Assembly (NCBI GenBank): GCA_918797485.1
Contig: CAKKNE010000003.1
Coordinates: forward strand, 5,332,001 to 5,385,517
DNA: 53,517 nucleotides
Source: Pelagomonas calceolata
Lineage: Eukaryota
Direction: 5' to 3'
Part shown: one piece after another, positions 2,764 through 53,517 of the stretch
Numbering within the stretch: the first letter of the stretch is position 1
Layout: each line of letters opens with the position of its first letter
The notes under the pieces: model-generated
The model's database searches: none
What the model was told of the DNA's origin: nothing
Seen by the model: the letters and a program-made list of their open reading frames with translations, nothing else
Position numbers and translations under genes: made by a program

Positions 2764-5044
2764 TTACGCGCGCGTGTGGAAGGGCTGGGCGTCCGCCCGG
2801 CGCGGCGTCGTGTGCACCGACGTCGCGGGCGCCGGGCTGCCGGGCTTGGGCGGCGGCTCGGGCGCCGCCGCGAGCGGTGACGGGTCGTTGCGGGGCCCGA
2901 GCGGCGGGCGCGGCGGGGGCGGCGGCTGCGCGCGGAGGCGCGCGACGTGGTGCTTGAGGTGCTGGAGCTCCGCGCGGTGCTGGACGAGCTTGTGGACCTC
3001 GGCCTCGAGGCGCGCGTTGTGCGTCGCGAGGCCCTCGGCGTCGGCGACGGCGCCGGCGGCGCTCTTCTCGGCCGCGTGGAGCCGCGCGCGGAGCCGCGCG
3101 GCGTGGGCGTCGCGCTCCTGGAGCGCCTGGAGCAGAAACTGCGTCGGCTTCTCGGCGGTCGCGAGGCGCGCGACGGCCAGGTCCGCGCGCGCGCGGAACG
3201 CCGCCGCCTGCGCCGCGAGGCCGTCGTTCGCCCGCGCGAGCGCCTCGCCGGCGGCCTCGGCCTTCAGGAGCCGCTGGGCGAGGAGCACGGCGTGGCGGAC
3301 GCGGCGCTCGGGCCGCGAGAGGCCCGCCGCCACGGCCGCGTCGCGGAGGCCCGCGTCGGCGACGCCGGGCTCCGGCGCGCCGCCCGCGCGGAGCACCGCC
3401 GAGTCGAGCTCGAGCTCGAGCTGCTCGTAGGCGCGCACTTTGCCCGCGAGGTCGTCGACCTCGGTCTCGAGGCGGCGGCGCTCGCCGGCGACCTTCTCCT
3501 CGAGCGCGGCGTTCTCGCGCGTCGCGACCTGCGGTGGGCGCGCGGCGGTTCGGCGAGGGCGCGGCGCCCGGGCGGCGACGAGCCCTATCCCCCCCCCCCT
3601 CGTTCGCGCGGCCGCGACGGGCGACCTGCTCGCGGAGCATGGCGTTCTCGAGCCGCGCCTCGTCGCGGTCGCGCTCGGCCGCGCGGAGCCGCGTCGCGGC
3701 CGCGGCGAGCTCGTACGCCAGGACGCGCCGCTCGGCCGCGGCCTCGGCCGTCTCCGCGACCCGGCGCGCCTCGGCCTCGGCCGCCCGGCTCCGCGCGCCC
3801 GCGACCTCGGCCTCGGCCGCGACGCGCGCCTCGCGCTCGCGGCGCGCGTCCTCGACCGCGTCGGCGCGCGCCTCGCGGAGGCTGGCGGCCTCGCGCTGCT
3901 CGAAGGTCTCGCGCTCCCTCCGGAGCGCCTCGACGCGCGCGTCGGCCGCCGCCGCGACCTCGCGCGTGCGCGCCTCGAGCTTCTCGCGGAACGCGTCGCC
4001 CTCGAGCGCCAGGCGCCGCTGCAGGTCCGCGACCTGAACGCGCTTCTCCTCGACGGCCTCGTCGGCCCGGAGGCCGCGGTACTCGGCCGCGTCCGCGCGC
4101 TTCGCCTCGGCGTTGGCGACGTCGCGCTGGTGGCTCGCCTCCTGCCGCGCGAGCTCGCACGCGGCCTCGGCGTCGCGGACGCGCCGCGCGCAGTCCGCCT
4201 CGGCGGCCGCCGCCGACCGGACCGCGTCCGCCGCCTTGGCCTGGTGCGCCGCGAGCTCCGCGTTCTCGGCGACGTAGCGCGCGCGGTCCGCCTCGACGCG
4301 CGCCAGGCGCACCGACGCGGCGCGGCCGGCCTCGAGCGCCTCCGCGCGCTCCGCCTCGCGGCGCCGCGCGTGCTCGAGCTCCGCGGCGACCCGCGCCAGG
4401 TCGTCGCGCAGCAGCTGCTCGCGCTGCGCCGCGCCGTGCGCGAGGCCCTCGTGCTCGGCGCGGAGCCGCTCGTGCGCCCGCTCGGCCGCGTCGCGCCGCT
4501 TGGCCGCGTCGAGCGCCGCGCGCGCGCTTTCGAGCCGCGCGGCCTGCGTCCGCTCCGACGCCTCGACCACGCGCACCGTCGCCAGCTCGCGCAGCGTCAG
4601 CTCGTCGGCCGGCCGCGCGCGGAGTTCGTCGACGAGCGCGCGGACGGACGCGGTTGCCGCCTCGTCGCCGCCCGCGTCGACGGCGTACGCCAGGCCGTCG
4701 CGGAACCCGTCGTCGATGGCGTCGCGCCGGTCCCGCAGCGCCTCCGTCGCCCGCGCGAGCTCGACGGCCTGCGCGTCGGCCTGCCGCCGCGCCGCGTCCG
4801 CGTCGCGCCGCGCGGCCGCCAGGCGCGCGTGGTACGCCTCGCGCTCGGCCGCGCGCCGCTCGTGCGTCGCCGCGAGCTCCGACTCGAGCTGCCGCGCGAG
4901 GGGCGCCGGCTCGCCGCCGAGGTTGGAAAACGACTCGGGCAGCGACAGCGTCGGCGACGAGGCGGCGCTGCCCCCGGCGCGCGGCCGTGCGGGCGACGCG
5001 CCCAGCGCCGAGATCTCCTCGTCGTCCGAGGCCGCGCCGTCCAT
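2764..5044 (-). CDS. PIBF1: PIBF1/CEP90-like centriolar coiled-coil protein; join(5044..3626,3528..2764)
   Basis: Motifs ELRARPADELTLRELATVRVVE, RAYEQLELELDSAVL, RRVRHAVLLAQRLL and KPTQFLLQALQERD resemble PIBF1; GT-AG intron 3529-3625 joins the two ORFs in frame. Confidence 0.8.
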
Positions 5045-29749: not shown

Positions 29750-30067
29750 ATTCAAGTTATATTACGACCGAAATCCATGGTTCTGGGTGGCCGATTTGGG
29801 GGTCTAATGATTTCTATGGCAATGTATGGCAATGGGAACAGGTACTTATCGCAATAGCATTCCTGTAGGCTCGACTAATTACACTATTAATCTCGGTGCA
29901 AGTTACTCGCAACTTGAACTCTTGGGGATAACTTCAAGTTTTGTTCAAACTCTTGCAGATCAAGATCATGCTGCAACACACACTGGCACAAGCTTTTACG
30001 CAAATAACGTAGTTCGATGGAGTCTCAGTATTGATGGCGTGTTGGTAGAAAATCAAAGAATGATTTA

Positions 30068-30228
30068 TAGCTCACCAGCCGAGGGCTGGGCCAACCTGAC
30101 TACGAGAGTGTTTTATAGTGAACTGTTGTTACACCGTAGTGCTTTTGACACTCGATGTATAGACTCAAATATTAGAGAGTGGGAGATACATATCTAGGGT
30201 AGGAAGGGCTAGTAGGTTTCTCTCTCTA
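30068..30228 (-). mobile_element. Copia-family LTR, truncated copy
   Basis: Near-identical to the reverse complement of 47522-~47682. Confidence 0.8.
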
Positions 30229-38564: not shown

Positions 38565-38735
38565 TATCAAGAGTATGTCGCAGCGTTATGTAAAGTAGCA
38601 GGGTGTTAGCTAACCAGCCGAGGGCTGGCTAGACCTGACTACGAGAGTGTTTTATAGTGAACTGTTGTTACACCGTAGTGCTTTTGACACTCGATGTATA
38701 GACTCAAATATTAGAGAGTGGGAGATACATATCTA
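38565..38735 (-). mobile_element. Copia-family LTR, truncated copy
   Basis: Near-identical to the reverse complement of ~47554-47724. Confidence 0.8.
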
Positions 38736-42514: not shown

Positions 42515-42633
42515 CAGGGTGGCAATCCGAGACGAAGTAGCCGGGAGAGACCGGTAACTCTTCCTACTAGGGAGGAATAAATTTCGATTTTCGGAAAGTA
42601 GTTATAAGTAATATACAACAGACGCGCGCGCGG
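42515..42633. mobile_element. Isolated end of the hAT-like family seen at 48943 and 51824
   Basis: CAGGGTGGCAATCCGAGACGAAGTAGCC... aligns to 48943-49060, then diverges; no second TIR found. Confidence 0.8.
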
Positions 42634-43009
42634 CTCACTGATGATGAAATAGTTATGTCCATTTCAAGTTTTACACCAAAATGACCTGTTTTCGCTCATA
42701 TATGCAAGATTTTCGCTCTAAGGCGAGCGAAAATTTTCAGACACGATCGGAACACATTTCGTTGATAAAAATGGGTCATAACCATGCGCCCCTTTTTGCC
42801 GACAAAACCCGATTTCCCCCCAGCCAGGCAATCGATCAGCAGGCACTCTAAGCAGACACATTAGCAAACGCAGGTCCAGTAATATTGCTATCAACATCAG
42901 AAGAAGTTTGATAACCTTGACCAGTAACATAAGTCGAACTTAAAACACTGGCATCCGACTCGGATGAAGTTTTACTACTAGCCCCTATCAGCCCCGTACT
43001 GCAGTGGGC

Positions 43010-47324: not shown

Positions 47325-47724
47325 GGTTGCCGCCGACGAGCCTACTTTCCGAAAAAGGACGAGAAGGATCCAACAAAGGTATTTTACGGATATTCATTTC
47401 AAGAAGAAATCTGTTGCACATGAAGCCTATCACTTGTCACATGGATTTTGTCAGTGAATAGACTGAGTTGATACATTCTCTAGTAGAAAGGCATCTAATG
47501 GACGCTCGCGCCCAGGGGGAGTAGAGAGAGAAACCTACTAGCCCTTCCTACCCTAGATATGTATCTCCCACTCTCTAATATTTGAGTCTATACATCGAGT
47601 GTCAAAAGCACTACGGTGTAACAACAGTTCACTATAAAACACTCTCGTAGTCAGGTCTAGCCAGCCCTTGGCTGGTTAGCTAACACCCTGCTACTTTACA
47701 TAACGCTGCGACATACTCTTGCTA
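47325..47724 (+). mobile_element. Copia 3' remnant: RNase H-like fragment, polypurine tract (47514-47521) and full 203-bp LTR (47522-47724)
   Basis: VAADEPTFRKRTRRIQQRYF resembles the NPxFxxRTKHIxxRYH motif; AGGGGGAG directly precedes TAGAGAGAGAAAC...CTCTTGCTA. Confidence 0.75.
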
Positions 47725-47818: not shown

Positions 47819-48700
47819 ATGGCGGGAACGACGTTCGCGCTGGTGCCCCAACTCGCGGGCACGCGCCCCCTCATCCGGCTCCCGGCGTCGGGTGAGGTCA
47901 CGGTCGGACGCAGTGCCGGGGCCCAAATCCAGCTGAACGCGGCGTTCATCTCGCGGCGACACGCGAGGCTGATCGCCGAGGCGGGTCGCGCCTACGTCGT
48001 GCCGCTGTGCCGCGACGACAAGCTCGTCACGGTCAACGGCGTGCCGGCGGCGCGCGGCGCGCGCGTCGAGCTGCGGGCCGGCGACGCGGTGAGTTTCGTC
48101 AAGGAGGAGGCAGACTTTGCGTATCGCGTCGAGCGGCGCGCGCCGCCGGCGGCCAACGAGGGCCAGACGGCGTCGGGGACGAAGCGGCCGCGCGCCGCGT
48201 CCGACGGCGACGTCGAGGCCGACTACGAGTGCTGCATCTGCTCGGGCGTCATCGCCGCGTGCCACTGCCTGCCGTGCGGCCACGCGGCCTGCGGCGAGTG
48301 CCTCGTCCGGTGGCTCGCCACGAAGCGCGAGTGTCCGGAGTGCCGCGCGGCCGTGCCGCCGCTCGCGGTCCTCGCGCCCGTCCACATCGTCGACAACGCC
48401 ATCGAGGCGAGGATCGGCGCCGTGCGTGCCGCCGAACGCGAGGACTGGGAGGCACGGCGATCGCGCTGGCGTCGGACGCGGCCCGACGGGCCCCTGCGCG
48501 CGCCGCCGTCGCCCGCCGAGCGGGGGCCGCGTCCACGCGCGCCGCCCCCCCGTGCGAGCACCGCGGCGCCGCCGCGCGCGCGGCGCCGCCGCAACGCAAT
48601 TCCGCCAGTCGCCGACATACGCGCTCTCCTCGCGGGTCGGCGCCGCGCAGCCGCCGTGACAGACCTCACCGAACCCGAAATCATTTCAATCGACGACTAA
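47819..48700 (+). CDS. FHA-RING E3 ligase (CHFR/RNF8-like)
   Basis: VTVGR..FISRRHA..VNG FHA motifs; C3HC4 RING CCIC..LPCGHAACGEC..W..CPECR; GGTACC array at 47726-47752 upstream. Confidence 0.9.
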   Translation: MAGTTFALVPQLAGTRPLIRLPASGEVTVGRSAGAQIQLNAAFISRRHARLIAEAGRAYVVPLCRDDKLVTVNGVPAARGARVELRAGDAVSFVKEEADFAYRVERRAPPAANEGQTASGTKRPRAASDGDVEADYECCICSGVIAACHCLPCGHAACGECLVRWLATKRECPECRAAVPPLAVLAPVHIVDNAIEARIGAVRAAEREDWEARRSRWRRTRPDGPLRAPPSPAERGPRPRAPPPRASTAAPPRARRRRNAIPPVADIRALLAGRRRAAAVTDLTEPEIISIDD

Positions 48701-48942
48701 TTAATGTACTTAGCACACCAGTGGGGGAACTACTTTCCGCACTGGAGCCTCGCTCGGGGCTGGCTGCCCTCCGTTTTTAAGTTTTTACTTACTAGTAGCT
48801 CTTAAGTATCTTCTCCCTACTCAGTCAAAATGCCAAACTAGAGCATTCGAAATAGCAATAAGGTAACTGCATAGAGTATTCTCAGTCTTGCGCGGTAAAA
48901 CAAAAGAGGGAACAACACGCCGAGGCCCAAACCTCGCGCCGG

Positions 48943-49371
48943 CAGGGTGGTAATCCGAGACGAAGTAGCCGGGAGAGACCGGTAACTTTTCCTACTAGGG
49001 AGGAATAAATTTCGATTTTCGGAAAGTAGTTATAGTGTTACACAACAGACGCGCGCGCGGTTCATTTGTATAAGAAAGTGCTCGTCGTTTTGGCGTGGTG
49101 GCGTTGAATCACCTTGGAGCGCGGCTCCTCGCCTTTGGTCGTCTCGCGAACGAACGAGGCGGACTTCCGGTCGTCATCCAGCCAGCGCTTCACTATCGGC
49201 GTGAAGTCGATCTCGTGAAGCTCAGGGAGATTCATGGTGTTGAACACAAGATCATCGAAGGACTCCTCCCCTAATTATTTTTTTAATAGAGGCCTAGAGA
49301 GCCCTCCCCGGAGTATTTATTTTCACTTTTGGCACCAGACCGGTAACTTTTTTTTCTCGATTACCACCCTG
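48943..49371 (-). mobile_element. 429-bp non-autonomous hAT-like element, copy 1
   Basis: 13-bp TIR CAGGGTGGTAATC/GATTACCACCCTG; internal LGEESFDDLVFNTMNLPELHEIDFTPIVKRW resembles a hAT C-terminal dimerisation region. Confidence 0.85.
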
Positions 49372-49431
49372 TACGTGAGCGGAAGACGGATCCGAACCCC
49401 CCTTGCGCTATCGACGCGACGGGCTTGCACG

Positions 49432-50424
49432 TTACTCGAGGTGCGGATTATCGTCGAGGATGCACGGCGGGTAGGGCCCCTCGTGGAGCCAGAGCTGGGA
49501 GACCCACTTCTCGGCTTTCGCGGGCTCGGCGGCGTGGACGGTGCGGTCGTCCGGGCGGCCGCTAAGATGAAACGCGGGAAAGAACAGGAGCGCGTCGCCG
49601 GCGACCGGCGCCACGCGGAGCGGCGGCGGCGCGCCGAGGTCGCGGAAACACGTGGCGCCGCCCTGTGCTTCGTCGCCGTCGCCGCTGAGGTAGACGAGGA
49701 GCGTCGCGACGCGCTGGCCGCCGTCGCCGCCGCGGAGGAGCGACGGCGGCACGGCGTCTTCGTGCCACCTGAACCGCTCGCCGGGCAGGTACCGCGCGAG
49801 CTGGAGCTCCTCGAAGTGCGCGAACGGAACGCCGCGGAACAGCGCGCGCGCGCGCCGCAGCAGGGGCGCGCAGGCGGGCTCGCGGTAGCGGGCGTACCAC
49901 GTGGTCGACGTCCGCCGCGGCGCCTCGCCGGCGGCGAAGGTGCCCGCGGCCTTGGGCATCTCGCGGCACCGGCCCGACGCCGTCAGGGCGATGAGCGCGG
50001 CGCACTCCTCCGTCGAGAGGAAGCCCTGGACGCGGTAGACGGGCGGGTCGAGGTGGAGCACGGCGAGGCGCGGGTCGCCGAGATCGACGGGATGCGCCTT
50101 GGCGTGCGCCAGGGCCGCGCCCGCGGTGGCGACGGCCACGGGCGGCGCCTCCAGCGACACCTTCCGCGCCCCGAGGTCCCGCGGCGCGTCCTCGTCCTCG
50201 GGCTCCGCCACGGGAAGGCCCCACTTGTCGAGCGCGGGCCGCGCCGGCGCCGCGCGCGGCGGCGGCCGCGGCCGTTTTCGCCGCGCTTTCGTGGTGCCTG
50301 CCTTTTTGGGCGCGCCGAAGCCCGCGCCGGCCCGGACGCGGCACGACGCGCGGCGCGGCGTTTGGCGCCCCTGGAGGCCGTCGGCCGCGACCAAGGCAGC
50401 CGCGAGTAATCGGACGCCACGCAT
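49432..50424 (-). CDS. Prolyl 4-hydroxylase-like 2OG-Fe(II) oxygenase with N-terminal targeting signal
   Basis: FLSTEEC, RTSTTW, EELQLARY..G..F.WHED, QRVATLLVYL, GGATCF, VHAAEP..EKW. Confidence 0.9.
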   Translation of the reverse strand: MRGVRLLAAALVAADGLQGRQTPRRASCRVRAGAGFGAPKKAGTTKARRKRPRPPPRAAPARPALDKWGLPVAEPEDEDAPRDLGARKVSLEAPPVAVATAGAALAHAKAHPVDLGDPRLAVLHLDPPVYRVQGFLSTEECAALIALTASGRCREMPKAAGTFAAGEAPRRTSTTWYARYREPACAPLLRRARALFRGVPFAHFEELQLARYLPGERFRWHEDAVPPSLLRGGDGGQRVATLLVYLSGDGDEAQGGATCFRDLGAPPPLRVAPVAGDALLFFPAFHLSGRPDDRTVHAAEPAKAEKWVSQLWLHEGPYPPCILDDNPHLE

Positions 50425-50647
50425 CGTCCTCTTGGTGTGGCGTGTAGCTGCTTGTCTGTCCTGGCCTTGCGGGACGACGCGTCGCGCAGTGGCAAGCAAG
50501 ACTATATTTTAGCTACCTGACCGCTGCAGCAGTGCGCACATGCATGCATAGCGAGTGCGGCGCTGGAGCCGCCGTAGCGCTGTGATCGTCCGGGCGAATA
50601 CGTGACGAGGAAGCTGTCTGGGCTTGCACGCGTCCATACAAGAGCGT

Positions 50648-51695
50648 ATGGCTGCCCCGCGTTTGGCTGCCACGAGTTTCATGCTCGCAGGCCTCGCCTT
50701 TGCTGGATCCGGCGCCGCGCCCGCCGTCGGCCGCCGCGAGGCGGCCTGGGGCGCCCGGCTCGCGCGCAAGCAGCGGTGCCTGGCGGCGGGCGCCGGCGGC
50801 TTCTACCTCTACCACGCGCGCAAGGCGGCGGGCACGACGCTGCGCGCGGCACTGCAGGAAGCGGCGCGGCGGCACCGCGTCGCGTACTGGGAGACCGAGG
50901 GCCTGTCGATCGACCCCATGTTCCTCGGCCTGCGGTCGATCATCACGGTCGTGTCCGTGCGCGACCCCATTCGCCGCGTCCTTAGCATGTACTGGTACGA
51001 GCACGTCGGCTGGCACGACGGCATTCTGCACGACCCCGCGGGCCTCCGGACGCTGCGCGCGTGGGTCGACGAGTGGAAGGACGACAGCCCGTGGAAGCGC
51101 GACTTCGCGCGGCGGAATCCCGGCAACGTCTACGTCGAGGTGCAGAACTACTTCACGAAGGCGCTGGCCGGCTGGAACGCCGCGGGCGCCGCGGCGGCCG
51201 TCGACGCGGCGGCTCTCTCTCGCGCGCGCGCAGCGCTCGAGCGCTTCGACGCGATCTTCGTCGTCGAACGCGCGACGTGGCCCAATCACACGGCGCTGCT
51301 GCGGCGCGCGCTGGGCCACGACGCGCCGCTGCGGGCGACGCTGCGGGGCGCCGGCCCGCGCGCCACTTCTTCTCTATTTTCTTTGTGCGCGCGCGCGACA
51401 CTTATGGCGACGAGGCGCGAACGCGGCGGCGCGCGCAGGCGACGACGCGGCGCGGCGGCGCCTTGCGCCCCGGCTCGCGCCCGACGCCGCCGCCGTCGTC
51501 GCGGACCTCGAGGCGCTCAACGGTTTCGACCGCGACCTCTACGGCTACGCGCTCGCGCTCGACGACGCGCGCACGGCGCACGCGCAGCGCGAGCCGCGGC
51601 GCGATGGCGGCGTGGCGCCGTGCGAGACCCCGCCGAGCCGGCAGCTTGGGTCGAAGACGGGCATTTTCCGCCCGCGCGGGCACAAACACCGGTGA
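50648..51695 (+). CDS. Sulfotransferase family protein; GC-AG intron 51348-51438
   Basis: FYLYHARKAAGTTLR, VSVRDPIRRVLSMYWY, LNGFDRDLY after splicing. Confidence 0.85.
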
Positions 51696-51823
51696 CCGCG
51701 CTCGCGGCTCGCGAGTGTGGGGGGTAAAATGGTGTGTAGTATTGCTGGTCGGGGTTAGGAGGTGTTTGTGATAGTTTTTCCTCTAGGATTTTCCCTGATG
51801 ATCCGATTCGGGCGGGCGGCGCG

Positions 51824-52252
51824 CAGGGTGGTAATCGAGAAAAAAAAGTTACCGGTCTGGTGCCAAAAGTGAAAATAAATACTCCGGGGAGGGCTCTCTA
51901 GGCCTCTATTAAAAAAATAATTAGGGGAGGAGTCCTTCGATGATCTTGTGTTCAACACCATGAATCTCCCTGAGCTTCACGAGATCGACTTCACGCCGAT
52001 AGTGAAGCGCTGGCTGGATGACGACCGGAAGTCCGCCTCGTTCGTTCGCGAGACGACCAAAGGCGAGGAGCCGCGCTCCAAGGTGATTCAACGCCACCAC
52101 GCCAAAACGACGAGCACTTTCTTATACAAATGAACCGCGCGCGCGTCTGTTGTGTAACACTATAACTACTTTCCGAAAATCGAAATTTATTCCTCCCTAG
52201 TAAAAAAAGTTACCGGTCTCTCCCGGCTACTTCGTCTCGGATTACCACCCTG
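51824..52252 (+). mobile_element. 429-bp non-autonomous hAT-like element, copy 2 (inverted relative to copy 1)
   Basis: Near-identical reverse complement of 48943-49371; transposase-like remnant at 51921-52133. Confidence 0.85.
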
Positions 52253-52521
52253 CTCACGTAACGTACTACTTTAAAGACGAATACGGGCAGCCATCGCCCG
52301 CCGTCGCTGCAATGGAAATACACGTCTAGTAGGATCCCAAGGTTCAACTGAGACGTATTCAAGCACAACCCGTACTTGTATTACCCGCCTAGGCTACTTC
52401 CCATCCTAGGGTACTCCGATATCCCCTTAGTAGGGGGAAGTCGCCTCTCACTCCTAACTATTATCATCCTGAGTCACCTTTTATTGACGGACGCAATTCC
52501 CCGTCACAAACCCCATCAAAC

Positions 52522-52700
52522 ATGGGAGAAACTATTTCGTTAGACGACTACACTACGCTGCCGGGGAAGTCCGGAGCTACACACTCTATCGTCTTCACCT
52601 CATTACTATTACCATTTCAACTTACTATTGTATGGTACGAAAGGCGACAAACACAAGTCCCGCGCGATCATCAAGGACCTTCTCTCACAGAAAGACCTCA
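52522..52700 (+). mobile_element. Possible degenerate LTR-retrotransposon integrase fragment
   Basis: GETISLDDYTTLPGKSGATHSIVFT, then frameshifted VYGTKGDKHKS; weak resemblance to the rve N-terminus. Confidence 0.35.
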
Positions 52701-52828: not shown

Positions 52829-53080
52829 TCACGAGCCGAGCTTTGTTCACGAGCCGAGCTTTGTTGAGTCGCGTGGGTTCTAGGATCCAGGTTCGCAGCA
52901 CAACTCGAGCAGCATCTTGAGACCAAGGATCCAGGTTCGCACCTCATCAACTCCGAAGGAACCAGCTCCAAGGTTAGCACATCAACTCCGAAGGAACCAG
53001 CTCTGTGAGACCAAGGATCCGGGTTCGCACATCAACTCCGAAGGAACCAGCTCTGTGAGACCAAGGATCCGGGTTAGCAC
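52829..53080. repeat. Subtelomeric tandem repeats: 18-bp unit x2, then a 50-bp unit (2 near-perfect copies at 52973-53072 plus degenerate copies from ~52880)
   Basis: tcacgagccgagctttgt x2; gtt(c/a)gcacatcaactccgaaggaaccagctctgtgagaccaaggatccgg. Confidence 0.9.
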
Positions 53081-53144
53081 TGGGTTTTCAGGCCAGGATG
53101 CGGGTTAGCAGGGCTTCGGATTGGGTTAGATGGAGGTTAGGATT

Positions 53145-53517
53145 GGGTTAGGGGTTAGGGTTAGGGGTTAGGGTTAGGGGTTAGGGTTAGGGTTAGGGGT
53201 TAGGGTTAGGGGTTAGGGTTAGGGTTAGGGTTAGGGTTAGGGTTAGGGTTAGGGTTAGGGTTAGGGTTAGGGTTAGGGTTAGGGTTAGGGGTTAGGGTTA
53301 GGGTTAGGGTTAGGGTTAGGGTTAGGGTTAGGGTTAGGGTTAGGGTTAGGGTTAGGGTTAGGGTTAGGGTTAGGGTTAGGGTTAGGGTTAGGGTTAGGGT
53401 TAGGGTTAGGGTTAGGGTTAGGGTTAGGGTTAGGGTTAGGGTTAGGGTTAGGGTTAGGGTTAGGGTTAGGGTTAGGGTTAGGGTTAGGGTTAGGGTTAGG
53501 GTTAGGGTTAGGGTTAG
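53145..53517 (+). repeat. Telomere (TTAGGG)n with interspersed TTAGGGG variants
   Basis: G-rich strand runs 5'->3' to the window end. Confidence 0.99.

Follow-up and report, generated by a model that had tools for sequence, protein, structure and literature searches.

In Pelagomonas calceolata, the gene order next to one telomere appears to be derived by an inversion between two copies of a hAT-type element. The window (the whole stretch of DNA that was analysed, 53,517 nucleotides) contains an inverted segment of 2,452 bp (49372..51823), and since both an empty allele (L002) and a one-element allele (L001) from metagenomes have this segment in the opposite orientation, the order seen in the window is most probably the younger one. 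As for the mechanism, we lean tentatively towards hybrid-element insertion between sister chromatids, in which the second copy of the element and the reversal of the segment would have been made in one aberrant transposition.

The inverted segment and its exchanged target duplications

The longest inverted repeat detected in the window by inverted-repeat comparison consists of the two arms bordering the segment. Copy 1 (E1; 48943..49371, reverse strand), a putative non-autonomous hAT deletion derivative of 429 bp, is the older insertion, as the same element occupies the same site in L001. Copy 2 (E2; 51824..52252, forward strand) is the younger copy and, by sequence comparison, is inverted with respect to copy 1. 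Copy 1 and the reverse complement of copy 2 are identical at 427 of 429 positions, the differences being confined to element positions 49-50, and each copy has perfect 13-bp terminal inverted repeats (TIRs) with a CAGGG start. Copy 1 is flanked by CGCGCCGG and TACGTGAG, and copy 2 by GCGGCGCG and CTCACGTA; the coordinates of both copies and all four flanks agree exactly with those given in the first-pass annotation.

These flanks belong to two target sites. In the left copy of target site a (CGCGCCGG; 48935..48942, forward strand), the element-adjacent base is complementary to its counterpart in the other copy, and the displaced copy (reverse complement CGCGCCGC; 51816..51823, reverse strand) corresponds to the right-hand duplication of the single element of L001. 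The displaced copy of target site b (49372..49379, reverse strand), which is the reverse complement of 52253-52260, forms a junction found on culture-run contigs, and its distal copy (CTCACGTA; 52253..52260, forward strand) is provided by the window sequence only. For site b, the reverse complement of the flank at 49372 agrees with the flank at 52253 at 8/8 bases; for site a, the reverse complement of the flank at 51816 agrees with the flank at 48935 at 7/8. With 49372-51823 reversed in silico, copy 2 lies within an 8/8 duplication and copy 1 within a 7/8 one, so that the exchange of 8-bp target duplications, which had already been proposed, was reproduced when recomputed. The word matching at 8/8 is found three times among the 106,184 8-mers of the window (both strands), two of these occurrences being the sites themselves. 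Because an exact 8-base reverse complement is hard to make by error, site b can be accepted on the window alone. The 7/8 match is weak by itself, since words with at most one mismatch to the GC-rich flank at 48935 are common in the window (743 of 106,184, 0.7%); in L001 the same 7/8 pair brackets a single element.

The segment holds two genes positioned head-to-head, with a shared intergenic region of 223 bp internal to the segment. The gene next to copy 1 (49432..50424, reverse strand) is intact and codes for a prolyl-4-hydroxylase-like 2OG-Fe(II) oxygenase of 330 aa; the match to PF13640 (E 1.6e-12) bears out the 2OG-Fe(II) oxygenase behind the earlier P4H-like label. Those of its relatives that carry an organism name belong to Aureococcus anophagefferens (71% over 45% of the query) and Pelagophyceae CCMP2097 (56%), while the cluster that contains it at 100% comprises 233 members of marine assemblies; the host is thereby identified as a pelagophyte. 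The second gene (50648..51695, forward strand), delimited by the sequences of its relatives, is conserved and of a weakly sulfotransferase-like type. The C-termini of relatives make one intron near 51349-51439 likely, and one such C-terminus implies a stop at 51693-51695. The sulfotransferase label given to this gene is weakened in our analysis: two sulfotransferase families each match 1 of the 15 relatives (E about 0.003), whereas the protein of the window has no Pfam match and was given no classification by Pfam and PDB sequence searches. Raw RNA reads (X21) map at low depth to the two genes, their directions being opposite as expected. As the stop codons lie 60 bp (oxygenase, from copy 1) and 128 bp (second gene, from copy 2) inside the breakpoints, the breakpoints spare both genes as well as the region between their starts.

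Outside the inversion, an FHA + RING gene (47819..48700, forward strand) serves as the proximal anchor and is the proximal neighbour in L001 as well. On the distal side, the contig ends in a TTAGGG telomere array (53135..53517, forward strand), which by repeat count consists of 63 units. The array starts 883 bp from copy 2 and 1,312 bp from the inverted block, in agreement with the earlier estimate of about 1.3 kb.

Alleles in metagenomes and junctions in sequencing runs

When metagenomes were scanned with the oxygenase, at least 598 stretches were found, and among the four loci listed two reach the proximal breakpoint. In L001 the FHA-RING gene is followed by one element and then by the gene block, which runs opposite to its direction in the window; the element differs from copy 1 at 1 of 429 positions (position 216) and is flanked by the same 7/8 duplication. 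L002 joins window positions 48803-48938 directly to the reversed 51822-49427 without an element, and its empty site has one diverged 8-mer, which is 5/8 to the window word and ends in C. No repeat is involved in L002, and its orientation is therefore not a repeat-induced mis-join. The inversion that the first-pass annotation had proposed is thus supported by independent sequence, given that L001 and L002 carry the pair in the opposite orientation and that the allele lacking the elements, L002, was found not to share the orientation of the window. The empty (L002), one-copy (L001) and two-copy (window) alleles form an insertion polymorphism by which the mobility of the element is shown.

The two other loci listed contribute less: L003 (92%) retains the head-to-head gene pair, and L004 covers the oxygenase end only. 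Beyond the oxygenase stop, none of the four loci listed shares window sequence, with neither element nor distal flank present there, and none of them shows an empty site b. L001 diverges from the window at 1 of 429 positions in the element and at 39 of 3,557 in the flanks, a difference that is not significant (P about 0.05). The wild sample is small, consisting of two informative loci and three metagenomes, and contigs drop rare variants.

Seven of the 24 sequencing runs were compared with the window, the DNA runs as contigs. Culture runs X1 and X3 show no differences from the window at either the proximal junction or the one at 49372, and X2 and X3 each have a single contig of 2,512 bp, from 49342 to 51853, with the inner ends of the element on both sides. 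The 49372 junction is thereby present in all three culture runs (X1 and X3 on contigs, X2 by the size of its contig). A second inner junction of the 49372 type was not seen in any of the three wild metagenomes (X4, X7 and X10, from three studies); in each of them a contig passes unbranched from the flank at 51794 into the element, for which a single inner neighbour is seen. At element position 216, X4, X7, X10 and L001 share the wild base, and both window copies have the other base. This base, common to the two window copies and absent from these wild copies, indicates that copy 2 derives from copy 1 of this lineage. Some X4 contigs stop at 48934 and at 51815, which border target a on its outer sides; such ends are expected if filled and empty alleles coexist.

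At 52203-52204, all four runs compared have the bases of copy 1. The 2-bp difference is thus not borne out by the runs, and the two copies may therefore be fully identical. The stretch 52260-52297 briefly connects the element to a high-copy repeat (52298-52601), and assemblers may drop such a connection; none of the four runs, culture run X2 among them, covers it, and this hole proves no absence. Neither is a further cover hole at 52602-52639 taken as absence. The junction of copy 2 with the distal flank has no run support among the four runs compared there. Window-specific stretches make up 3.9% of the 31-mers, a value equal to the excess of the word share of X1 (0.96) over that of X2/X3 (0.92); this agreement is a hint only, X1 not having been compared there. 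The best 15 of the 46 rows of the junction table are mostly 20-25-base matches in GC-rich coding DNA and were set aside.

The element as a member of a divergent hAT family

hAT elements have short terminal inverted repeats, and a CAG-type start is typical of them. Among seven candidates, the sole longer homologue of the open stretch in the element is P0122, a protein of 315 aa. Its residues 246-315 are 98.6% identical to the transposase remnants of both copies, which, by the match to P0122, are located at 49274-49065 in copy 1 (reverse strand) and at 51921-52133 in copy 2 (forward strand). The element thus retains the last 70 codons of the transposase, nearly unchanged in marine assemblies, and the position of the match implies that approximately 100 bp of one element end have been joined to the part coding for the transposase C-terminus, which is followed by the other end. 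Within the window only the two remnants match P0122, and no complete autonomous copy was recovered from the alga. For the 42515 fragment, a partner end and a duplication were sought and neither was found. The contigs of the element have about 1.5-3 times the depth of single-copy contigs in X1, X2 and X3, a ratio not to be equated with a copy number.

At E<=0.001, 177 relatives of P0122 were found, with lengths of 849-1033 aa in some cases. In profile searches, hAT Pfam families were absent from P0001, P0122 and nine relatives, the lone weak match being to a C17orf113 zinc finger (E 0.015) in one of the nine relatives; a PDB sequence search for the transposase gave no match. The fold was considered through P0164, a relative of 894 aa that is 50% identical to P0122 and was modelled from a 30-row alignment with a pLDDT of 76.8. 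The best 11 of its 12 structural matches at E<=0.001 are all Hermes (best E 4.5e-8), a result that rests on the relative P0164 and not on the parent P0122 itself. The identity of the transposase family to Hermes (PDB 4d1q) is 9-11%. Candidate DDE triad and CxxH-like motifs were picked by eye in P0163 and P0164, and E799-R800 is nearly invariant in alignment A1.

Considering the Hermes-like fold modelled for P0164, the TIRs and the 8-bp duplication, the element appears to be a Ds-type, non-autonomous, internally deleted hAT. The hAT derivation originally assigned to it is therefore consistent with the CAGGG start of the TIRs, with the 8-bp duplications and with the Hermes fold of a transposase relative. 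Like Ds-type deletion derivatives and Hermes, it has short TIRs and an 8-bp duplication, together with an internal deletion that keeps a C-terminal remnant of the transposase; unlike them, its parent family has no hAT Pfam match (0 of 10 proteins scanned). The transposase family was not found under any name in the literature searched. A 20-base pattern of the element end had no matches in viral contigs, and two matches in prokaryote genomes were rejected as chance, only 20-21 bases being matched.

Routes to the inversion

In the order of events that the alleles suggest, an empty site received copy 1, which is still segregating in the wild, and copy 2 and the inversion were added later in the cultured lineage. 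If this happened by hybrid-element insertion, transposase supplied in trans would, after replication, pair the inner element end of one chromatid with the outer end of its sister, and the hybrid ends would insert at an 8-bp site 52 bp beyond the oxygenase stop codon. In this single step the element and target b would each gain a second copy, and the DNA between donor and target would be reversed. The modelled product agrees with the window at 3,799 of 3,801 bases, the exceptions being the 2-bp difference. Delprat et al. (PMC2775673, available part) give identical copies as the criterion for hybrid insertion and chimeric copies as that for recombination, the products being otherwise alike. The locus has identical or nearly identical copies, one prior donor and no deletion or duplication beyond the targets, features which are necessary for hybrid insertion and not sufficient.

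The same arrangement could also be reached in two steps, a possibility that deserves serious but still guarded consideration: copy 1 would make a local hop, with the donor kept, into site b in inverted orientation, and later homologous recombination would reverse the segment. Linked hops are typical of Ac/Ds. The products of the two routes are letter-for-letter alike, and a fresh local hop also leaves identical copies; since both routes yield the same sequence, the data presented here separate neither of them. Recombination of this kind has precedents, as in a rice line with an inverted Ds pair 11% of the rearrangements were recombination inversions (PMC3239180, available part), and exchanged duplications are its published signature (PMC2775673, likewise in part). 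On the other hand, two events would be needed in a time too short for the copies to diverge, and an allele with copy 2 only is absent from the four loci listed and the three metagenomes. The copies are not detectably chimeric, although markers to show chimerism are lacking. Identical copies, one known donor and the absence of a copy-2-only allele slightly favour hybrid-element insertion, whereas the two-step route could recur in either direction.

Two further readings are less attractive. It is improbable that the strain has a simple local hop whose interior was placed backwards between near-identical repeats during assembly. Up to k=431, the two-copy forms with and without the flip have the same set of words, the culture runs show no read or listed contig linking both sides of a copy, and the difference of the window at 52203-52204 and the gaps distal to copy 2 mean that the consensus may be imperfect. 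However, the window runs through high-copy and subtelomeric repeats to the 63 telomere units, which suggests long reads, and these would span 429 bp easily, which counts against such an error. Still harder to sustain, and very improbable, is a composite transposon or a regulated invertible switch, as which two intact inverted copies bracketing two intact genes might be read. The outer flanks of the whole unit are not duplications of each other, and the genes are present at the locus without elements in L002 and head-to-head in the 92% relative L003, so that the composite transposon suggested in the first-pass annotation has to be given up. Moreover, the unit terminates on either side in the same end of the element, and hAT transposition would probably require two different ends. 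As to a switch, no promoter or coding sequence crosses a breakpoint, and the two genes run towards the same end of identical copies, whereby each has the same first 429 bp downstream in either orientation. With both genes and the shared promoter region intact, a regulatory switch role for the inverted segment is unlikely. Considering that both genes face outward from the shared intergenic region inside the segment, the inversion is predicted to be close to neutral for them.

Transposon-flanked inversions with exchanged duplications are well established (PMC2775673, PMC3239180, PMC5724284, PMC12312487 and PMC5113708, each in its available part). Galileo inversion 2z3 of Drosophila buzzatii likewise has copies in opposite orientation, exchanged duplications and a single target in the uninverted arrangement; its copies are chimeric, showing ectopic recombination, whereas those described here are identical or nearly so (PMC2775673, available sections). 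Galileo belongs to the P superfamily; here a hAT is involved, with a segment as short as 2.45 kb and a known ancestral allele that has one element. There is also a likeness to hybrid element insertion (Gray, Tanaka and Sved 1996, via the accessible part of PMC2775673), in which one donor and sister-chromatid ends inserted nearby give an inversion between two identical copies, and with which a Tam3 rearrangement (Robbins et al. 1989, via the accessible part of PMC5113708) can be grouped. Unlike those cases, the algal event was deduced from allele comparison and not observed in a cross. The rice OsRLG5 Ds pair also consists of linked, inverted, non-autonomous hAT copies with the intervening DNA inverted, but that line was transgenic and passed through tissue culture, and both copies were known before the inversion (PMC3239180, in the part available).

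No published account of the locus or the family was found in the literature on pelagophyte transposable elements, hAT elements and genomes; the main text of a pelagophyte pangenome preprint contains neither 'transpos' nor 'inversion', and its supplements could list hAT repeats. The mechanism itself is textbook and its effect on the two genes is probably nil. On the other hand, the natural series from an empty site through one copy to two copies with an inversion is unusually complete and polarises the event. It points to a recently active pelagophyte hAT family missed by Pfam, which could serve as an endogenous tagging tool in a poorly tractable group of algae, and suggests that cultured strains may carry rearrangements missing from wild populations.

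The single mismatch in site a concerns the base touching the element, which is replaced by its complement; the empty allele has the other base. Its presence in L001 makes it older than the inversion, and gene conversion by the flank of copy 2 is ruled out, since L001 has the mismatch without copy 2. Repair scars of Ac/Ds centre on the complement of the element-adjacent base (PMC5873905, available part). The mismatch may therefore mark an aborted and rejoined cut, a post hoc reading with a chance of about 1 in 24 given one mismatch. An active, Pfam-invisible pelagophyte hAT that would account for the wild-segregating insertion, an aborted cut with a hairpin scar, and sister-chromatid copying with inversion, and whose pair of copies would still be able to flip or break the tip, is doubtful when taken as a whole. 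For the mismatch, a plain point mutation is also a possible source.

Dispersed repeats and tandem arrays

A high-copy dispersed repeat occupies window positions 52298-52601, as judged from contig depth in four runs, in which it reaches tens to hundreds of times the depth of single-copy contigs. Copies elsewhere extend beyond position 52589 and have a common sequence there, and therefore the copy in the window looks truncated; the repeat is possibly a MITE. A second dispersed repeat, of about 140-170 bp, is present in four copies (16439-16580, 30041-30228, 38565-38735 and 47522-47724), which are 78-99% alike and one of which is inverted.

Arrays of a 9-base unit, GGTACCGTA, recur in intergenic DNA at window positions 677, 10994, 28447, 28824 and 38508, and also at positions 1-199 of the metagenomic locus L001. 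The subtelomere (52829-53134) holds tandem repeats with units of 18 bp and 50 bp, along with degenerate copies of the telomere unit, ahead of the TTAGGG array.

Traces and relatives of the hAT family

The hAT element contains a subterminal direct repeat close to both of its ends, at 48975-48994 and 49337-49357 in copy 1. The unconfirmed 2-bp variant of copy 2 (52203-52204) makes one of these subterminal repeats more similar to the other, a pattern that would be expected from a polishing error or a template switch. A lone 123-bp end of the same family, 94% identical to copy 1, is located at 42515-42637; neither a partner end nor a target duplication was found for it within the window.

Among nine scanned relatives of the parent transposase P0122, three (P0179, P0195 and P0257) carry a chromodomain within the hAT-like transposase, with E values from 2.6e-12 to 2.9e-10. 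The 94-aa protein P0171, in which residues 1-50 of P0122 are fused to its C-terminal part, is apparently another internal-deletion derivative of the P0122 transposon.

The 3' flank of the oxygenase gene

The 3' flank of the 2OG-Fe(II) oxygenase gene (window 49372-49431, and the sequence past the stop in metagenomic loci L001-L004) is highly variable, with four different sequences in five alleles or relatives. In L004, the oxygenase stop is followed by an open frame of 480 codons and not by a chromosome end.
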